This document shows, piece by piece, positions 10,234 through 53,057 of a stretch of 64,000 bases of DNA. The stretch lies in contig JAPSKV010000013.1 of NCBI GenBank assembly GCA_031181385.1, forward strand, positions 11,321 through 75,320, in the 5' to 3' direction. The notes beneath the pieces were generated by a model, which was not told the origin of the DNA, did no database searches, and saw nothing but the letters and a program-made list of their open reading frames with translations. The position numbers and the translations under genes are program-made. Origin of the DNA: Fredinandcohnia onubensis (lineage in GTDB: Bacteria; Bacillota; Bacilli; Bacillales; Bacillaceae_L). Each line of letters opens with the position of its first letter. Positions within the stretch are counted from its first letter, which is position 1.

Positions 10234-11253
10234 TTACAACTCCCATGTAAACCATCTTCCATGCCCTTCAGTTTGAGCAACAACATGTTTATACTCTTTC
10301 CCATCAAGAGAATAATCTAGGTGAAGGTCGCGGTCTTGTATATTGTTATATAGATGGAAAATCTCACGTTCAAACCCGATCTGCTGAACCTTATCTAGCA
10401 ATCTATTCCTCACTTCCGAAGGCATTTGGTTAGCCACATGGGTGTGAAACACACAAATAGCATATTCGCTTGAAACTTGTTTTGAAAGTTCATCAAGCAC
10501 TTCAACACCATTCCCTTTAATCAACCGTATTTCGTTCGCCTTAACAATTTCTGAAGCCTTTTCAAATAACTCCCGTCTTTCATGATGTTCCGGCCAAATG
10601 AGGGCTTTTAGCCAGAGAACATTTTCATCATCCGTTAAATCAATAGGATGGAGGTCGATGCCAATACGTTCAGATACTGGTGGAATAAAGTCTTGTAGAG
10701 TAGGAGTATTGTCTCCTTTTATTTCAGCTTTTATATGCAAATTTGATTCTCTGTTTCCGAAAACTGCTCCCGTTCCATACGAGTAACTATACTGATCCCA
10801 TAGCAACTGCAGGCCGGCACTGGTCCCAATTTCAATCAATGCTAGCGGCTTTTTCACGATATGATAAATAGATTGAAAGGCTGGAAAAAGAAAGGAACAT
10901 CGTCTTACTTCATTTGTTTGAACCAATTTTTCCTGTAAAAGCGGGATGATTTCGTCAGAATATTGACTGCAAAACTCTTTAAAAGGTAAAAAGGATTCCT
11001 CTACTTTCCGAGGATTCTTCGTCATACTTGGATAAAAATCACGAAGCCGGTGGTTCTTTCCTTTTAATAAAAGGTAATGAACAGCACCAAACAACAAATT
11101 AGATGAAGGTTGACCACTACGTGCATGAGAAGCCAACTCAAGGAGTTCATCATCGTCGGCAATCTGTAATGAAAGAAATTCATACAAGCTACTTGAGCCC
11201 TTACATTCAGTGTTGGCGAAGTTTCGAAACTTAATAGACTGAGTGTTATTCAT
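10234..11253 (-). CDS. DUF2332 family protein
   Basis: VQTNEVRRC, LIEIGTSAGLQL, WLKALIWPEH motifs; GGAGG RBS before ATG 11253. Confidence 0.85.
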   Translation of the reverse strand: MNNTQSIKFRNFANTECKGSSSLYEFLSLQIADDDELLELASHARSGQPSSNLLFGAVHYLLLKGKNHRLRDFYPSMTKNPRKVEESFLPFKEFCSQYSDEIIPLLQEKLVQTNEVRRCSFLFPAFQSIYHIVKKPLALIEIGTSAGLQLLWDQYSYSYGTGAVFGNRESNLHIKAEIKGDNTPTLQDFIPPVSERIGIDLHPIDLTDDENVLWLKALIWPEHHERRELFEKASEIVKANEIRLIKGNGVEVLDELSKQVSSEYAICVFHTHVANQMPSEVRNRLLDKVQQIGFEREIFHLYNNIQDRDLHLDYSLDGKEYKHVVAQTEGHGRWFTWEL

Positions 11254-11511
11254 CTTTCTTTCCTCCTGAAAATTTTTTCGAACTTGACCCTCAAACCAAG
11301 ATAAACCCCAGCGAATTATATACTGAAAGGTCTGGTGGAATACATGAAGGAACAAACAGTAAAGTTTACGTATAATGAAATCGACTTACTTATAGAAGCA
11401 ATGGATAAGGATATATGGAAAGATATTAAATGGAAGTTTGTAACTGAAGAAGAAATTGAATCTTTATTAAAAACCTCTTAAGGCATCCCTTAGGGGGTTA
11501 TTTATTTAATA

Positions 11512-38713: not shown

Positions 38714-38800
38714 CTATACAAAAGGCAAAATTGTTGAAAGACAATGACGCAAAGCCACGGGCCTAAGGAGGATTCCTCTATGGTGGCCGGGTTGCTATAG
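38714..38800 (+). ncRNA. Cyclic di-GMP-I (GEMM) riboswitch aptamer
   Basis: GGCAAA-ATTGTT-GAAA-GACAAT-GACGCAAAGCCACGGGCCTAA..TATGGTGGCCGGGTTGC with closing CTATA/TATAG, matching the recalled consensus and GNRA tetraloop. Confidence 0.9.
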
Positions 38801-38879: not shown

Positions 38880-39081
38880 TGTTCAAAAAGTCCGGTGAAA
38901 TTGACACATCGAATTTCTTCGTTGGCTTGTTTTTCCGTTGCTCACGTATTAACTACATACGTTCCACTACTCAAAACTGCACCGCCTCGAACTTTCGACG
39001 CACAGGACGTGCTAGTGTCGACAATGCCACAGGACGTGGCGTTTTTGTCGACGTGGTCCTTTTCATCCTCCTTTTTGAACA
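38880..39081. mobile_element. MITE-like repeat, long variant
   Basis: 11-bp terminal IR TGTTCAAAAAG/CTTTTTGAACA; aligns end to end with 63155-63296 apart from a 58-bp insert. Confidence 0.75.
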
Positions 39082-47151: not shown

Positions 47152-50025
47152 ATGGCATTGGATAAAATAGTCGTCAAAGGAGCAAGGGCCCATAACTTAA
47201 AAAACATAGATGTTACGATTCCGAGAGATCAACTAGTTGTCGTGACCGGTCTATCTGGTTCAGGAAAGTCATCCCTTGCATTTGACACCATTTATGCAGA
47301 AGGACAACGGCGTTATGTCGAGTCCCTCTCTGCATACGCACGTCAATTTTTAGGGCAAATGGATAAACCAGATGTTGATTCAATTGAGGGTCTTTCACCT
47401 GCGATTTCGATTGACCAAAAAACAACAAGCAGGAATCCAAGGTCAACTGTTGGTACGGTTACAGAGATTTATGATTATTTGCGGTTATTATATGCTCGAG
47501 TAGGAAAACCGGTTTGTCCTAACCATGGAATTGAAATTACATCACAAACCGTTGAGCAGATGGTAGATCGTATTTTAGAATACCCAGAACGGACAAAGCT
47601 GCAGGTACTCGCGCCTGTTGTATCAGGACGTAAGGGTGCCCATGTGAAGATTTTAGAGGATATAAAAAAGCAAGGTTATGTCAGAGTCCGTGTCGATGGT
47701 GAAATGCTTGAGCTATCAGATGACATCGAGCTAGAAAAGAATAAAAAACATTCAATTGAGGTTGTCATTGACCGAATTGTAGTTAAAGAGGGTGTAACGG
47801 CAAGACTATCTGATTCAGTTGAGGCTGCCCTACGTTTAGGCGGAGGCAAAGTAATTATTGATGTGATTGGGGAAGAGGAACTCTTGTTTAGTGAGCTTCA
47901 TTCATGCCCGATTTGTGGTTTTTCCATTGGGGAGCTTGAACCAAGAATGTTCTCTTTTAATAGTCCTTTCGGGGCATGTCCCGATTGTGATGGATTAGGC
48001 AACAAACTTGAAGTCGACCCAGATCTCGTGATTCCGAACTGGGATTTATCACTTCGAAAGCATGCAATTGCACCATGGGAGCCAACAAGCTCTCAATATT
48101 ACCCACAATTACTAGAATCAGTTTGTAATCATTACGGGATTGATATGGATATCCCGGTAAAGGATATCCCGAAGCATTTGATGGATAAAGTCCTTTATGG
48201 AAGTGATGGCGAAGAAATCTACTTCTATTATGAGAATGACTTCGGTCAGAAACGTGAAAATAATATCATTTTTGAGGGTGTCCTTCGAAATGTAGAAAGA
48301 CGTTACAAAGAAACAAGCTCCGATTATATTCGGGAGCAAATGGAAAAGTATATGGCTGAGCGTGCTTGCCCTTCATGTAAAGGTTATCGGTTGAAAAAGG
48401 AAAGTCTTGCTGTTCTAATCTCAGGGAAACATATTTCTAATGTTACAGACTTTTCCATTAATGAGGCTTTTGAATTCTTTACTAATATTGAGCTCTCTGA
48501 AAAAGATATGAAAATCGCGAACCTTATTTTTCGAGAAATCAAAGAACGACTCGGTTTTCTCGTTAATGTTGGATTAGATTATCTAACTCTAAGTCGTGCC
48601 GCAGGAACTTTATCTGGTGGTGAGGCTCAACGGATTCGACTAGCTACTCAAATCGGTTCGCGTTTAACAGGTGTTCTCTATATTTTGGACGAGCCGTCAA
48701 TTGGATTACATCAACGAGATAATGACCGACTCATTGATACGCTAAGGACAATGAGGGATATTGGGAATACATTAATTGTTGTTGAGCACGATGAAGATAC
48801 GATGCTAGCTGCTGATTATTTAATCGACATCGGACCAGGAGCTGGAATTCATGGGGGAGAGATAATCGCTGCGGGAACTCCTAAAGAAGTAATGGAAGAC
48901 CTGAATTCCTTAACAGGACAATACCTCTCGGGTAAAAAGTTCATCCCACTACCAAGCGAAAGAAGACAGCCGGATGGACGCTATGTAGAAGTTATTGGTG
49001 CAAAGGAAAATAACCTGAAAAATGTATCAGCTAAGTTCCCACTTGGATTGTTCATTGCTGTTACTGGTGTATCAGGATCAGGTAAGAGTACTTTGGTGAA
49101 TGAAATTCTCCATAAATCATTGGCACAGAAACTGAACCGAGCAAAAACAAAACCTGGTGAACACAAGGAAGTTAAAGGTATTGAACAATTGGAAAAAGTA
49201 ATCGACATTGACCAGTCGCCAATTGGACGGACACCTCGATCAAATCCGGCTACATACACAGGCGTCTTTGATGATATTCGTGATCTGTTCGCTAATACAA
49301 ATGAAGCAAAGGTAAGAGGTTATAAGAAGGGTCGTTTTAGTTTCAATGTTAAAGGTGGACGCTGTGAAGCCTGCCGTGGTGATGGAATTATTAAAATCGA
49401 AATGCACTTCCTGCCAGATGTTTATGTACCTTGTGAGGTATGTCATGGGAAACGCTATAACCGTGAAACATTAGAAGTAAAATATAAGGATAAAAATGTA
49501 TCAGATATATTAAATATGACAGTTGAGGATGCATTATCCTTTTTTGAAAACATTCCACGAATCAAACGTAAAATTGAAACATTATATGATGTTGGTTTAG
49601 GCTACGTTAAACTAGGACAACCTGCAACAACACTTTCTGGTGGAGAAGCACAACGCGTGAAGCTCGCTTCTGAATTACATCGTCGCTCAAATGGTAAGTC
49701 ATTTTATATTTTAGATGAACCAACAACGGGCCTACATGTAGATGACATTTCGAGATTGCTTAAGGTCTTACAGCGACTAGTTGAAAATGGGGATACAGTC
49801 CTTGTCATCGAACATAACCTCGATGTAATCAAAGCCGCAGACTACATTGTTGACCTCGGCCCAGAAGGCGGAGACAAAGGTGGTACCATCAATGGAACTG
49901 GTACACCAGAAGAAATTACAAAAATCAAAGCATCCCACACTGGACGCTACCTAAAACCAGTCCTTGAACGCGACCGCCAGCGGATGAAAGAATTAATCAA
50001 AGAAAAAGAAACAGTTACTAAATAA
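47152..50025 (+). CDS. uvrA: Excinuclease ABC subunit A
   Basis: Two ABC ATPase halves ([24 protein letters not shown]) and zinc fingers. Confidence 0.99.
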
Positions 50026-50031
50026 ATGTAG

Positions 50032-50068
50032 AATCCCGATTTGTGAACAGAGCAAATCGGGATTTTTT
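50032..50068 (+). terminator. Terminator hairpin copy 1
   Basis: AATCCCGATTTG-9nt-CAAATCGGGATT plus T-run. Confidence 0.85.
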
Positions 50069-50176
50069 ATAATGAAAACACACTTGGGTTAGGAAAATTA
50101 TGGTATCCTACTAATAAGGGCATATAAGGTAATTTTTTGAAAGAGGCTATTCTAAAACCATACAAAGGGGATAAAG

Positions 50177-50560
50177 ATGAAAATCACCATTCGCGTTACT
50201 GAAATTTTGTTGGGGGCTATATTTTTAGGAGCAGGTTTAAATGGGTATGCTGTGTTGTTTGGATTTGAGCCATTTGCGCCAACAAGCCCAGCTGCGATGG
50301 AATTTTTGGGAGATGGCTACTTACTAGCGTTGGAAAAAGGTGTTGAAATCATTGCGGGATTATTATTGATTATTCATAGGTATGTACCGTTAGCCTTAGT
50401 TGTTTTAGCAGGTCTAATAGTCAATATTTTAGCATTTCATATCTTTGTAGATTCAGAGTTGCTTCCATTGGCAATTATGATAACAATATTTGAAGGAATA
50501 TTAGCCTGGCATTACCGCGAAAACTTTAAAATGCTTTTAGAAAGTAAGCCTAAGCATTAA
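50177..50560 (+). CDS. DoxX-like membrane protein
   Basis: ILLGAIFLGAGLNG..EIIAGLLLII..VNILAFH; 4 TM. Confidence 0.75.
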   Translation: MKITIRVTEILLGAIFLGAGLNGYAVLFGFEPFAPTSPAAMEFLGDGYLLALEKGVEIIAGLLLIIHRYVPLALVVLAGLIVNILAFHIFVDSELLPLAIMITIFEGILAWHYRENFKMLLESKPKH

Positions 50561-50562
50561 AT

Positions 50563-50599
50563 GTAACCACAGGTAACCACAGGGGCGGTTCTTGTGGTT
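50563..50599 (+). repeat. REP-like element R1
   Basis: AACCACAG-GGGCGGTTC-TTGTGGTT preceded by tandem copy of GTAACCACAG. Confidence 0.75.
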
Positions 50600-50611
50600 T
50601 GATGAAACAGG

Positions 50612-50649
50612 AAAATCCCGATTTGCGAAAATATGCAGATCGGGATTTC
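50612..50649 (+). terminator. Terminator hairpin copy 2
   Basis: AAATCCCGATTTGC-8nt-GCAGATCGGGATTT. Confidence 0.8.
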
Positions 50650-50817
50650 TAAATTTTACGTCCCCTTAATGAAAAAAATGATATAATTAAATCTAATTTT
50701 TAAAATTTTTGATTATTGTTATATTAAATTATATTTTGTATTAAAGTTTATTTTTTTACATAAACTCACAAATTAAAACAATAATGAAGAAAAAGAATAT
50801 GTAAGGGAGTTTTTAAC

Positions 50818-51756
50818 ATGGAACATCGTAATAAAATTATAGACTGTACTATTCGTGATGGGGGATTAGTTAACAATTGGGACTTTAGTGTCGAATTTGT
50901 TCAAGACTTGTATAATTGCCTAAGTGCAGCTGGTGTGGAATACATGGAGATTGGCTACAAAAATTCGCCTAGGCTACTCAATGCAACTGAGCCTAATCCA
51001 TGGAGGTTTCTTGACGATAACTTCCTTAAAGAAATTATTCCTGAGAAAAAAACGACGAAGCTATCTGCTCTGGTAGATATTGGGCGTGTTGATCCTGCTG
51101 ACATACTACCCCGTGAGGAAAGTGTTCTAGATATGATTCGAGTTGCGTGCTACGTACGTGAAGTAGATAAAGGCTTGGAGCTTGTAAAAATGTTTCATGA
51201 CCTAGGCTACGAGACTTCACTTAACATCATGGCTTTATCTAGTGTTCCTGAACGTCAGCTTATTGAAGCGTTTGAAATGGTGAAGGCAAGTCCTGTCGAC
51301 GTTGTCTATATCGTTGACTCATTTGGAAGCTTAGCTCCTACCGATATTGAGCATCAAGTGAAAAAGTTCCAAGAGATGCTCCCTAATAAACAGCTTGGAA
51401 TACATACGCATAACAACATGCAATTAGCATTCGCCAATACACTAGCTGCGATGAGAAACGGAGTTACTTATCTTGATTCGTCTGTTTATGGTATGGGTCG
51501 TGCGGCTGGTAATTGTCACACAGAGCTTCTCGTTAGTTACATACAAAAAAGTAGCTATGAGATTAAGCCAGTTCTCAGTATCATTGAAAAGCATATGATA
51601 GAAATGCGACAAAAGTGGGAGTGGGGCTATATCATTCCTTACATGATCTCCGGTATGCTTAATGAACATCCACGTGTCGCTATGGCCTATCGTAATAGTG
51701 CAGACCGTGATAACTATGTAGACTTTTATGACAAAGTAACATCACCTGAATCTTGA
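50818..51756 (+). CDS. DRE-TIM metallolyase (HMGL-like / 4-hydroxy-2-oxovalerate aldolase-like) catalytic domain protein
   Basis: IDCTIRDGG, YIVDSFGSL, GIHTHNN, GMGRAAGN motifs. Confidence 0.85.
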   Translation: MEHRNKIIDCTIRDGGLVNNWDFSVEFVQDLYNCLSAAGVEYMEIGYKNSPRLLNATEPNPWRFLDDNFLKEIIPEKKTTKLSALVDIGRVDPADILPREESVLDMIRVACYVREVDKGLELVKMFHDLGYETSLNIMALSSVPERQLIEAFEMVKASPVDVVYIVDSFGSLAPTDIEHQVKKFQEMLPNKQLGIHTHNNMQLAFANTLAAMRNGVTYLDSSVYGMGRAAGNCHTELLVSYIQKSSYEIKPVLSIIEKHMIEMRQKWEWGYIIPYMISGMLNEHPRVAMAYRNSADRDNYVDFYDKVTSPES

Positions 51757-51758
51757 CT

Positions 51759-51816
51759 GGAACTAGGAACCAAGGGGACGGTTCTATTGGTCCCCAATGG
51801 GAAAACCCGGGGACCA
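51759..51816 (+). repeat. REP-like element R2 with extra hairpin
   Basis: GGAACCAA-GGGGACGGTTCTA-TTGGTCCC; second IR TGGTCCCC/GGGGACCA. Confidence 0.75.
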
Positions 51817-51832
51817 GTTTGTTCTAAATAGG

Positions 51833-51868
51833 AATCCCGATTTGCTTAGACGCAGATCGGGATTTTTT
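51833..51868 (+). terminator. Terminator hairpin copy 3
   Basis: AATCCCGATTTGC-6nt-GCAGATCGGGATT plus T-run. Confidence 0.85.
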
Positions 51869-52059
51869 AAATGAAATATAAGAATTTATCAGTCAACAAT
51901 AGTCACTTTGATATTTGCTACATTTTTTTCTAATTAACTATGATACTATAAATTTGATAAGTCTCTCCATACCACCTTCCTCTACTCTGTTTTATTAAAC
52001 CTCCCTTTTTAGTTTCAAATTCCATATATTTTTAAAAAAACGAATATGAGGTGATGTTT

Positions 52060-52547
52060 ATGCCCTAGGGCTGCAAGAAGAAAAAGTAGTACGAGTGTCT
52101 ATCATGTCATTTTAAGGGGGATTAATCGTCAAATAGTACCAAAATCCATTAAAAGCCGGAATTGTTGGGAATGTTTCAAATTACAAATGGAGTAGTTATA
52201 GTGAATATGTAGGAGATTCTAAATCTAAAATTATAGAAAAAGATTTTATTTTGGGCTTGTTCAATACGGATACGGATAAAACGTTAGCTTTGATCCATTT
52301 TAAAAAATTTCATATGGAAGAGTCTAAAGAAGGATACCTTGATATCCAAGAAACAAAGAGAATTACTGACAAACAAGCAATTGAAATCATCAAAAATATC
52401 TGCAAAGTAAACCACTGTTTAGACTTCCAAAAGATAAATCCTGACGAACGGGATACACACATCAAAACCTTAAAATCCATTGGACTATCAACTAGGCAAA
52501 TAGCAAGACTTACCGGAATAAGCCGTAAAGTAATATTAAAAGCATAG
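52060..52547 (+). pseudogene. REP-associated tyrosine transposase (RAYT, Y1 HUH) remnant
   Basis: GAGGTGA RBS, ATG, +1 C frameshift, then RAARRKSSTSVYHVILRGINRQIV joined to QNPLKAGIV..YKWSSYSEY..GLSTRQIARLTGISR; HUH region missing. Confidence 0.85.
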
Positions 52548-52648
52548 AGACCAAGGGAGGACCGAGGGGACGGTTCTCTTGGTCCCGATAGAAAGATTAT
52601 TCTAAGGAAAAGCAGCCAGGAACCACTAGAACCGTCCCTATGGTTCCC
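52546..52648. repeat. Inverted pair of REP-like elements (REPIN-like)
   Basis: GGACCGAG-GGGACGGTTCT-CTTGGTCC at about 52559-52585 and the reverse-complement copy GGAACCACTAGAACCGTCCCTATGGTTCCC at 52619-52648. Confidence 0.8.
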
Positions 52649-52742: not shown

Positions 52743-53057
52743 GTGAATACCGATAAATTAATTGCAGCGTTGTGTTACTTCAGTGTTTTCTTCGCAGGGT
52801 TTATTTTACCACTCGTTGTTTATATCATCGTTCAAAATCCAATAGTAAAAAGGCATGCCTTGCATGCATTAATCTCACATATAATTCCAGTAGCGACAAT
52901 CGTTTTTATCATCATTCCGTTTTTCTTTATATGGTCTGTGGAGGCATTTGTAGCAACAATGCTACTAGTGTTCATCCTATTAGCGATCATTAACGTCGGA
53001 ATTGTGATTTGGAACATTGTAAAAGGAATTCAAGTATTAGCTCAAGAAGAACTTTAA
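52743..53057 (+). CDS. yvlA: YvlA-like membrane protein
   Basis: AALCYFSVFFA..ALISHIIP..IWNIVKGI; synteny. Confidence 0.75.
   Translation: MNTDKLIAALCYFSVFFAGFILPLVVYIIVQNPIVKRHALHALISHIIPVATIVFIIIPFFFIWSVEAFVATMLLVFILLAIINVGIVIWNIVKGIQVLAQEEL

Follow-up and report, generated by a model that had tools for sequence, protein, structure and literature searches.

Reiterated uvrA terminators in the REP- and RAYT-bearing uvrA–yvlA spacer of Fredinandcohnia onubensis

In a 64-kb stretch of the Fredinandcohnia onubensis genome (contig JAPSKV010000013.1, positions 11,321 to 75,320; hereafter, the window), the spacer between uvrA and a yvlA-like gene carries one hairpin three times: behind uvrA (H1), behind a gene for a DoxX-like membrane protein (H2) and behind an aldolase gene (H3), all at the places named in an original prediction made from the sequence. 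The same spacer holds repetitive extragenic palindromes (REPs) and the remnant of a REP-associated tyrosine transposase (RAYT). The repeated hairpin is predicted to be the Rho-independent (intrinsic) terminator of uvrA, and its reiteration is probably the result of REP-associated local rearrangement, which multiplied a REP-plus-terminator module within the home spacer of the RAYT and was followed by decay. The original prediction had proposed serial, integron-like gene acquisition, a reading that fails on the ancestry of the DoxX-like gene, the boundaries of the rearrangements, the promoter of the aldolase gene, the architecture of the hairpin and the lack of a nearby recombinase.

On several occasions a REP has become inserted beside or within the uvrA terminator. 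The resulting REP-plus-terminator composite, together with a few bases of the uvrA 3′ flank, is present two more times in the spacer of the F. onubensis/F. salidurans group. Between the two extra hairpin copies lies a relocated, self-promoted aldolase gene whose 3′ end has been replaced by a REP, and the locus has decayed by deletions affecting a gene for a 166-aa protein, the RAYT and, in F. onubensis, H2. In kind the locus is familiar: a REP/RAYT system with a flank that has been reiterated locally.

The repeated hairpin and its distribution

47152..50025 (+): uvrA, 957 aa, the gene whose predicted terminator is the repeated hairpin; open reading frame (ORF), with UvrA Pfam domains in the identical gene order of L002
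50030..50071 (+): H1, predicted native intrinsic terminator of uvrA with a 15-bp stem, loop GAACAGA and T-run; the REP-less allele, from folding and orthology
50610..50650 (+): H2, putative paralogous copy of the uvrA terminator behind a REP, with a weaker U-tail, from folding
51819..51877 (+): H3 module, second putative paralogous copy, with remnants of the uvrA flank on both sides, from flank alignment and folding

The stem arms (AATCCCGATTTG..CARATCGGGATT) occupy positions 50032-50043 and 50053-50064 in H1, 6 nt past the uvrA stop codon (50023-50025); 50614-50625 and 50636-50647 in H2, 53 nt past the stop of the DoxX-like ORF (50177-50560); and 51833-51844 and 51853-51864 in H3, 76 nt past the stop of the aldolase ORF (50818-51756). 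When up to one mismatch per arm was allowed, the 64-kb window contained eight matches against 0.88 expected, a number reached by none of 100 shuffles, and no further site comparable to H1–H3 was present in the remaining 62 kb. Predicted folding energies are −20.8, −22.4 and −22.7 kcal/mol for H1, H2 and H3 (z about −6.8), and a run of six T directly follows H1 and H3; the tail of H2 is weaker (UUUCUAAAUUUU). A stable stem-loop with a U-run on the same strand, 3′ of the stop codon, is therefore found at each site, with the reservation of the H2 tail. The likeness to known Rho-independent terminators includes the GC-containing stem of 12–16 bp, the short loop, the U-run and the position 6–76 nt past the stop on the coding strand, as well as compensatory and G·U changes among orthologues, whereas the occurrence of one sequence three times behind three unrelated neighbouring genes is unusual. 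Identity with a known RNA family was rejected, the only Rfam gathering matches in the window, a c-di-GMP-I riboswitch (38714-38799, +, 83.6 bits) and a Bacillaceae-1 small RNA (38999-39065, −, 42.5 bits), lying far from the hairpins; these two are 200 nt apart on opposite strands.

Spacers were compared across L002, L153, L076 (F. onubensis), L010 (F. salidurans), L020 (JJ1521), L040 (JJ1533), L154–L157 (F. salidurans-type), L099–L103 (a REP-free relative from metagenomes), L104 (JJ1562), L105 (HNG) and the runs X1–X8. The contig of L002, a Logan isolate, is likely identical with that of run X4, both being 16,744 nt long, and the contig of L153 with that of run X6, both 17,838 nt. Divergence of uvrA and yvlA is 1–5% for Fredinandcohnia strains, 3–7% for L099 and 12–21% for the JJ/HNG group. 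Eight of the nine groups of relatives, L153 included, have uvrA followed directly by one orthologous hairpin (among them L076, L099–L103, L104, L105, L020 and L040); in F. salidurans (L010), REPs and a 7-nt stub of H1 follow uvrA, and the REP-preceded H2 (REP.H2) is the first complete hairpin. Alignment of 14 orthologous and paralogous copies left 96.4% of cells paired, with compensatory double changes in two stem pairs (A-U to U-A in L099; C-G to U-A in H3 of F. salidurans) and one-sided changes in seven, mostly to G·U; the covariation score was reached by 2 of 500 shuffles. The one-sided G·U changes fit pairing in RNA, and covariation of this G·U-tolerant kind would fit selection at the RNA level. 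An orthologous hairpin behind uvrA whose stem changes are compensatory thus points to an intrinsic terminator of uvrA.

With each of 185,579 species represented by one genome, a search for the exact pattern found 93 stretches. Among the 80 that were listed, only four Bacillaceae genomes occur, all with matches at the uvrA locus (F. onubensis two; F. salidurans, JJ1521 and JJ1533 one each); every other listed match is a lone palindrome, unrelated to this one, from Bacteroidota, Clostridia or another group. On the assembled contigs of runs with the window strain or close relatives, the hairpin matched the locus contig only, and REPs were present on several others. Contig matching used a 54-nt stretch of the hairpin and its sensitivity to arm-only matches is uneven, so weight is placed mainly on the exact-pattern genome scan. 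The possibility raised at the outset, that the hairpin is a common genome-wide terminator family, is thereby answered in the negative across the window, the listed matches in species genomes and the run contigs.

Two side observations concern the hairpin itself. Dozens of Bacteroidota genomes (L003–L082), many of them Chryseobacterium, have one copy each of the 11+11-nt palindrome ATCCYGAYTTG..CARATCGGGAT, with chance matches roughly estimated at about 15; in that group it probably represents the conserved terminator of a gene with no relation to the uvrA locus. A promoter-like site at 50044-50073 (TGAACA-18-TATAAT, 10 of 12 positions) overlaps the H1 loop and the end of its T-run and, judged by its motif, could drive the DoxX-like gene after deletion of the 166-aa gene and its promoter region; its TATAAT is not present in the L099 version of the flank.

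REPs, the RAYT and the extra terminator copies

50561..50599 (+): post-DoxX segment, consisting of ATGTA (copied from the 5 nt that follow the uvrA stop), 10 nt duplicated in tandem and, at 50575-50599, a REP hairpin with core GGGGCGGTTCT
51766..51818 (+): REP with core GGGACGGTTCT at 51775 and an adjoining second small hairpin, from repeat search and folding
52048..52547 (+): dead RAYT (REP-associated Y1 HUH transposase), start region GAGGTG-ATG TTT ATG CCC TAG
52560..52647 (no strand): inverted REP pair, a REPIN-like doublet downstream of the RAYT, folding as one long hairpin (−43.6 kcal/mol)

The REP core GGGRCGGTTCT occurs four times, always in the spacer (50582, 51775 and 52567 on the forward strand, 52628 on the reverse), and the REP-core search of the window gave five matches against 0.78 expected. 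As had been predicted, one REP directly precedes H2 and another H3, and a RAYT remnant with a REP pair (52567-52586 / 52619-52638) closes the block before the yvl operon; the REP behind the DoxX-like gene was likewise present, its exact sequence being corrected to GGGGCGGTTCT. At the 5′ edge of that REP, GTAACCACAG is duplicated in tandem (50563-50582), a duplication not present in X4, X5 and X6. A REP upstream of yvlA is common to the window, F. salidurans, JJ1562 and HNG. REPs were also found on other contigs of X1, X2, X4, X5 and X6, with at least four further sites in the window strain, and contig data suggest a low genomic copy number. The repeated hairpin differs from the REP consensus (GGAACCAnnGGGACGGTTCTnnTGGTTCC) and has no copy outside the spacer; it is not a REP of this family.

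An N-terminal fragment (52061-52135) and a C-terminal part (52137-52547) are what remains of the window RAYT, the 286-nt deletion between them (relative to X4 and X5) having removed the HUH and Tyr motifs. Full-length genes are present in L002, L010 and L104, with Pfam Y1_Tnp matches at 1e-14 (L002, L104); the L104 protein matches the NCBIfam model REP_Tyr_transpos at 5.6e-20 with 71.7 bits (cut-off 80), versus 20 bits for IS200. Inverted REPs flank the gene (arms 51766-51794 and 52619-52647, 86% complementary), as they also do in L104. Four lineages, about 18% diverged, carry the RAYT in the uvrA–yvlA spacer, and ratios of nonsynonymous to synonymous substitution (dN/dS) of 0.12–0.17 place it under purifying selection among the relatives. 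In the Fredinandcohnia/“Bacillus sp. JJ” clade this spacer is home to one RAYT gene together with its REPs.

No start codon stands in the RAYT frame: GAGGTG-ATG TTT ATG CCC TAG G stops after four codons, and the RAYT itself (PRxARxKS..YHV) is read in the +1 frame. The motif (window 52048-52069, L002 about 11233-11254, L010 2935-2956, L104 5112-5133) is identical in four lineages, with the ORF behind it open for about 250 codons. It looks like a conserved, prfB-like CCC_UAG +1 frameshift site, a candidate assignment preferred over a shared inactivating mutation.

Such systems are defined by a RAYT gene that stands between inverted REPs (PMC2817692), and low repeat numbers have been reported for Group 1 RAYTs (PMC5581495), which the low REP copy number here resembles. 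Described REP/REPIN–RAYT systems (Nunvar 2010, PMC2817692; Bertels & Rainey 2011, PMC3116915; Bertels 2017, PMC5581495) share with this locus a single Y1 HUH gene between inverted REPs, REP doublets forming long hairpins, REPs dispersed at other extragenic sites and a RAYT vertically inherited at one locus under purifying selection. The locus differs in its host, a Bacillaceae genus, in that the window RAYT is dead, in a repeated hairpin that is not a REP, and in a RAYT that has a C-terminal extension, falls just below the NCBIfam cut-off and has no in-frame start codon. Reiteration of REPs with flanking DNA, and insertion of REPs into palindromes, have been described for other REP families (PMC3733652). 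The local repetition of a REP with its adjacent flank, here the uvrA terminator, and the REPs inside the left arm of the terminator palindrome in F. salidurans are like those cases, while the copies considered here are separated by whole genes (0.5–1.2 kb) in place of a tandem arrangement and number only three, at one locus.

The original prediction had also regarded the extra hairpins as copies of the site at the uvrA terminator, and this part of it is upheld, since both carry pieces of the uvrA 3′ flank. H2 and H3 are found, among the relatives compared, only in the F. onubensis/F. salidurans group. After the DoxX stop the window reads TAA-ATGTA-REP-H2, and TAAATGTA also stands right after the uvrA stop. 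Upstream of H3, CAGTTTGTTCTAAATA (CAGT..TTCTAAATA) resembles the last uvrA codons of L099 (CAGTTTCTAAATAA), and downstream TTTTAAATGAAA is identical to the terminator flank of L099; each score was reached by 3 of 2000 shuffles. A REP-hairpin composite stands directly after uvrA in JJ1562, HNG and one X3 contig, with a similar arrangement in F. salidurans that has an extra REP and the H1 stub. In the X3 contig, whose uvrA part has one mismatch over 226 nt, position 50025 is followed by 50563, and 50631 (with AGAT added) by 50052, which gives uvrA-TAAATGTA-REP-hairpin-H1 3′ flank. This junction indicates that a REP-bearing allele of the uvrA terminator exists and that REP.H2 is a copy of that allele. 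Confinement of the extra hairpins to the F. onubensis/F. salidurans group and the uvrA flank they carry argue for segmental copies, of about 70–110 nt of the uvrA 3′ end, and against independent sites.

The sites of rearrangement fall at REPs and at a TAAAT microhomology that the stop regions of uvrA and the DoxX-like gene have in common, so that the suspected involvement of REPs is borne out. The copies would have arisen by REP-associated segmental duplication or illegitimate recombination and not by site-specific cassette capture; REP–REP recombination or RAYT-dependent breakage could be the mechanism of copying, and one junction may have formed at the TAAAT microhomology. Each hairpin would now act as the terminator of the gene in front of it.

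Spacer layouts and the genes between uvrA and yvlA

The layouts are given in the following symbols: U, uvrA; H, hairpin; m, 166-aa gene; D, DoxX-like gene; A, aldolase gene; Y, RAYT; R, REP; T, terminator of the DoxX-like gene; V, yvlA.

L099 type: U-H-m-D-T-V, without REP
JJ1533: U-H-D-T-V
JJ1521: U-H-m-D-R-V
JJ1562: U-R.H-m-(nudix fragment)-R-Y-RR-D-RR-V
HNG: U-R.R.H-m-Y remnant-RR-D-T-R-V
F. salidurans (5 contigs): U-'GTAGAATCCC'-R-R.H2-A-R.H3-Y-RR-D-T-RR-V
Window, X1 and X2: U-H1-(m deleted)-D-R.H2-A-R.H3-Y(286-nt deletion)-RR-V
L002: as the window, apart from a partial m deletion with different endpoints and a full-length Y
L153: m as in L002, right arm of H2 mutated, Y deleted
F. onubensis: U-H1-m-D-R-(no H2)-A-R.H3-(no Y)-RR-V
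X5: m present, three hairpins, Y full length

The layout without REPs, aldolase gene and RAYT (uvrA, hairpin, 166-aa gene, DoxX-like gene, terminator, yvlA; L099–L103 and JJ1533) is ancestral. Losses have since accumulated by several routes. The 166-aa gene was lost through two different deletions among the relatives, and the RAYT was inactivated or lost through two, one elsewhere and the internal one of the window copy, which makes three endpoint pairs (two for the 166-aa gene, one for the RAYT) and a fourth, internal, in the window RAYT. F. onubensis differs at H2 by a clean 48-nt indel between GGTT repeats; as H2 is present in both sister clades, its absence there is most simply a slippage deletion. 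Members of the window clade have the DoxX-like gene ahead of the aldolase block. In F. salidurans it comes behind that block, between two REP groups, and the left arm of H1 (the GTAGAATCCC stub) is broken by the left junction, which abuts a REP.

50072..50176 (+): scar of a lost gene for a membrane protein of 166–169 aa, with the native upstream region of the DoxX-like gene; deletion junction 50115/50116
50177..50560 (+): DoxX-like small membrane protein, 127 aa, ancestral neighbour of uvrA
50651..50817 (+): aldolase promoter and AT-rich leader, with an extended −10 (TGATATAAT) at 50679-50687
50818..51756 (+): HMGL-like (DRE-TIM) aldolase, 312 aa, Pfam PF00682 at 2.4e-29
52743..53057 (+): yvlA-like DUF4870 gene, first of the conserved yvlA–D operon and right border of the variable spacer

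At the scar, L076 of F. onubensis and run X5 have 580–600 extra nt, and L002 and L153 have a different partial deletion. The DoxX-like protein, 95% identical to its F. onubensis homologue, matches no model in Pfam or NCBIfam, and the DoxX label comes only from the source names of homologues. Its gene is also found near uvrA in L099–L103, JJ1521, JJ1533, JJ1562 and HNG, and the order uvrA, hairpin, (166-aa gene), DoxX-like gene, yvlA is present in relatives without any REP, aldolase gene or RAYT. The comparison thus marks it as an ancestral neighbour of uvrA and not as cargo, for which it had been taken in the original prediction.

The aldolase gene is, from this comparison, the only lineage-specific gene in the spacer. 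Against the NCBIfam 4-hydroxy-2-oxovalerate aldolase model it scores 139.8 bits, below the 229-bit cut-off. Its homologues in Neobacillus and Priestia (319 aa, 85–90% identity) are monocistronic, have their own terminator and stand in unrelated contexts, so that a conserved position beside uvrA in other genera was rejected; the final seven codons of the window gene are replaced by the REP. Upstream of the Neobacillus gene lies the same AATGAAAAA-TGATATAA promoter motif that sits directly after H2 in the window, with only a degenerate form in Priestia (TTGACA...AATGAATCGTGGTATAAAC). In F. salidurans (L010 1440-1690, corresponding to L154 3540-3690), this promoter has given way to an unrelated stretch of about 130 nt that separates H2 from the leader, and transcription of the aldolase gene may there start at a different promoter or come from uvrA by read-through. 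Several public records name the aldolase homologues (P0133, P0137, P0153 and others) “nucleoid-structuring protein H-NS”, evidently a propagated misannotation. The yvlA-like gene is conserved in all relatives compared.

Alternative histories and what the locus illustrates

Local, REP-associated reiteration has to be set against several observations that weigh against it. The stems of H1, H2 and H3 are nearly identical and their loops completely different, each loop type resembling that of the lone uvrA terminator in another, distant species; such a combination is not what a simple recent duplication predicts. The homologies to the uvrA flank are short (12–16 nt), and the poor U-tail of H2 sits uneasily with a terminator function for every copy. 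The DoxX-like gene of F. salidurans (L010 3865-4248, after the RAYT) is 10–12% diverged from the window-clade copy, versus 1–5% for uvrA and yvlA, and the DoxX tree places it outside L099 plus the window clade, in conflict with the flanking genes. Accelerated evolution was rejected as the cause, the two copies being equally distant from the outgroups in a relative-rate comparison, and the conflict implies either an old duplication with differential loss or import by recombination. A unique order of events (tandem duplication at TAAAT, REP–REP deletion, import) could not be upheld, several orders being compatible with the layouts, and the RAYT, as opposed to ordinary recombination, could have made the junctions, which is only a possibility.

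The integron-like array, in which the uvrA terminator would serve as a recombination site regenerated with each serial insertion of the DoxX-like and aldolase genes, is very improbable. In its favour are the three stems, nearly identical, directly oriented and each closing a gene at its 3′ end, in which they recall the attC sites of gene-cassette arrays, together with the restriction of the hairpin to the uvrA locus, the lineage-specific aldolase gene and the F. salidurans arrangement, where only the H1 stub, REPs and REP.H2 separate the aldolase block from uvrA. One of the two supposed cassette genes is, however, ancestral at the same place in REP-free relatives, and the other has its own promoter. 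The prediction had implied modular gain and loss at the hairpin and REP boundaries, but across nine relatives no unit of gene, REP and hairpin is gained or lost and no variant is bounded by two hairpins: F. onubensis differs by the H2 indel alone, other deletions end elsewhere, and the F. salidurans junction runs from inside the left arm of H1 to a REP and not from hairpin to hairpin. Without modular variation at these boundaries the cassette model fails. No hairpin-to-hairpin deletions or circles were found in the assembled contigs of X1 and X2, assemblies that drop rare variants, and no integrase or other recombinase is encoded within about 10 kb of the spacer, where prfC, an ABC transporter, a csbA-like gene, uvrB, uvrA, yvlA–D, GNAT, hprK and lgt are located. 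The stems also differ from attC sites (imperfect R″-L″/L′-R′ pairing, extrahelical bases and a GTTRRRY core), being perfect over 12–16 bp, free of bulges, followed by T-runs and devoid of GTTRRRY. Independent look-alike terminators arisen by chance or convergence, or an operator for a DNA-binding protein, are hardly credible. The same palindrome does occur once each in many unrelated Bacteroidota and Clostridia genomes, which suggests an “easy” terminator solution, yet three copies lie within 1.8 kb, none in the other 62 kb, and their flanks are homologous to the uvrA end; the variable loop length (8–10 nt) is unsuited to a dimeric operator, and the G·U changes point to RNA pairing.

Two further histories, each unlikely, stay closer to the favoured one. 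The composite, or the hairpin alone, may be a small mobile element copied by the RAYT, with the genes merely lying between insertions. A REP directly before both extra copies, the clean 48-nt presence/absence difference at H2, the purifying selection on the RAYT in sister strains and the insertion of other REP families into palindromes, with reiteration of flanking DNA (PMC3733652), agree with such an element. The block also encodes a Y1 HUH enzyme that recognises DNA hairpins, a trait in common with the hairpin-ended IS200/IS605 family. Against a mobile element, none of the genomes examined has the hairpin anywhere but in the spacer, a target-site duplication is lacking, the absence of H2 in F. 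onubensis, with H2 in both sister clades, is most simply slippage between GGTT repeats, and the copies carry uvrA flank, as segmental copying would. Multi-locus copies of the IS200/IS605 type or of miniature inverted-repeat transposable elements were not seen, the Bacillaceae matches being locus-specific among the 80 of 93 stretches listed; the hairpin is neither multi-copy nor at the ends of a moving unit, no conserved target tetranucleotide was seen, and the enzyme fits the RAYT model far better than that of IS200 (71.7 versus 20 bits). A metagenome scan for the composite pattern (GGTTCTNNTGG-N12-42-AATCCYGATTTG) gave chance matches only, none of its 47 stretches having a REP core or second hairpin arm, a negative of little weight as the scan also missed the uvrA locus of this clade. 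The other history, to which only a small probability is given, is a mosaic, a variant of local rearrangement and no contradiction of it: a diverged segment (uvrA end, H1, 166-aa gene, DoxX-like gene) would have recombined into an F. salidurans-type chromosome through one crossover in uvrA and one illegitimate junction at TAAAT, the redundant second DoxX-like gene being lost between REP pairs, so that the three hairpins would be alleles of different lineages brought together. The grouping of the window-clade DoxX-like gene with L099 and not with F. salidurans, both being equally far from the outgroups, is in its favour, as are the junction between the DoxX-like gene and REP.H2 at TAAAT(GTA), common to the uvrA end, the match of each loop type to the uvrA terminator of another species and the coexistence of REP-less and REP-bearing uvrA terminator alleles among near-identical strains. 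No intermediate with two DoxX-like genes was found, however, the 3′ part of uvrA has no foreign stretch, and the microhomology spans only 5–8 nt.

Local REP-associated rearrangement therefore remains the favoured history, and on this reading the locus is an ordinary but instructive case, in which a REP/RAYT home locus reshapes a conserved intergenic spacer. It illustrates how a neighbouring terminator may be copied, how a relocated gene may be truncated and re-terminated, and how decay by deletion follows. It also carries a warning against taking every series of like hairpins behind neighbouring genes for recombination sites.

It is tempting, at rather low odds, to go further and see in the REP-terminator composite a portable “gene-end” module that depends on the RAYT. 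A block bounded by REPs and about 2.5 kb long (REP.H2, aldolase gene, REP.H3, RAYT, REP pair) follows the DoxX-like gene in the window clade and precedes it, inside the broken uvrA terminator, in F. salidurans. This block may have moved as a unit; a conserved chromosomal gene would then have been relocated by REPs and a RAYT, an enzyme on which selection still acts and whose expression perhaps depends on the conserved CCC_UAG +1 frameshift. If true, such RAYT-dependent movement of a gene-carrying, REP-bounded block would mean a direct role of a RAYT in gene relocation in Firmicutes, for an enzyme whose cellular role is still debated.

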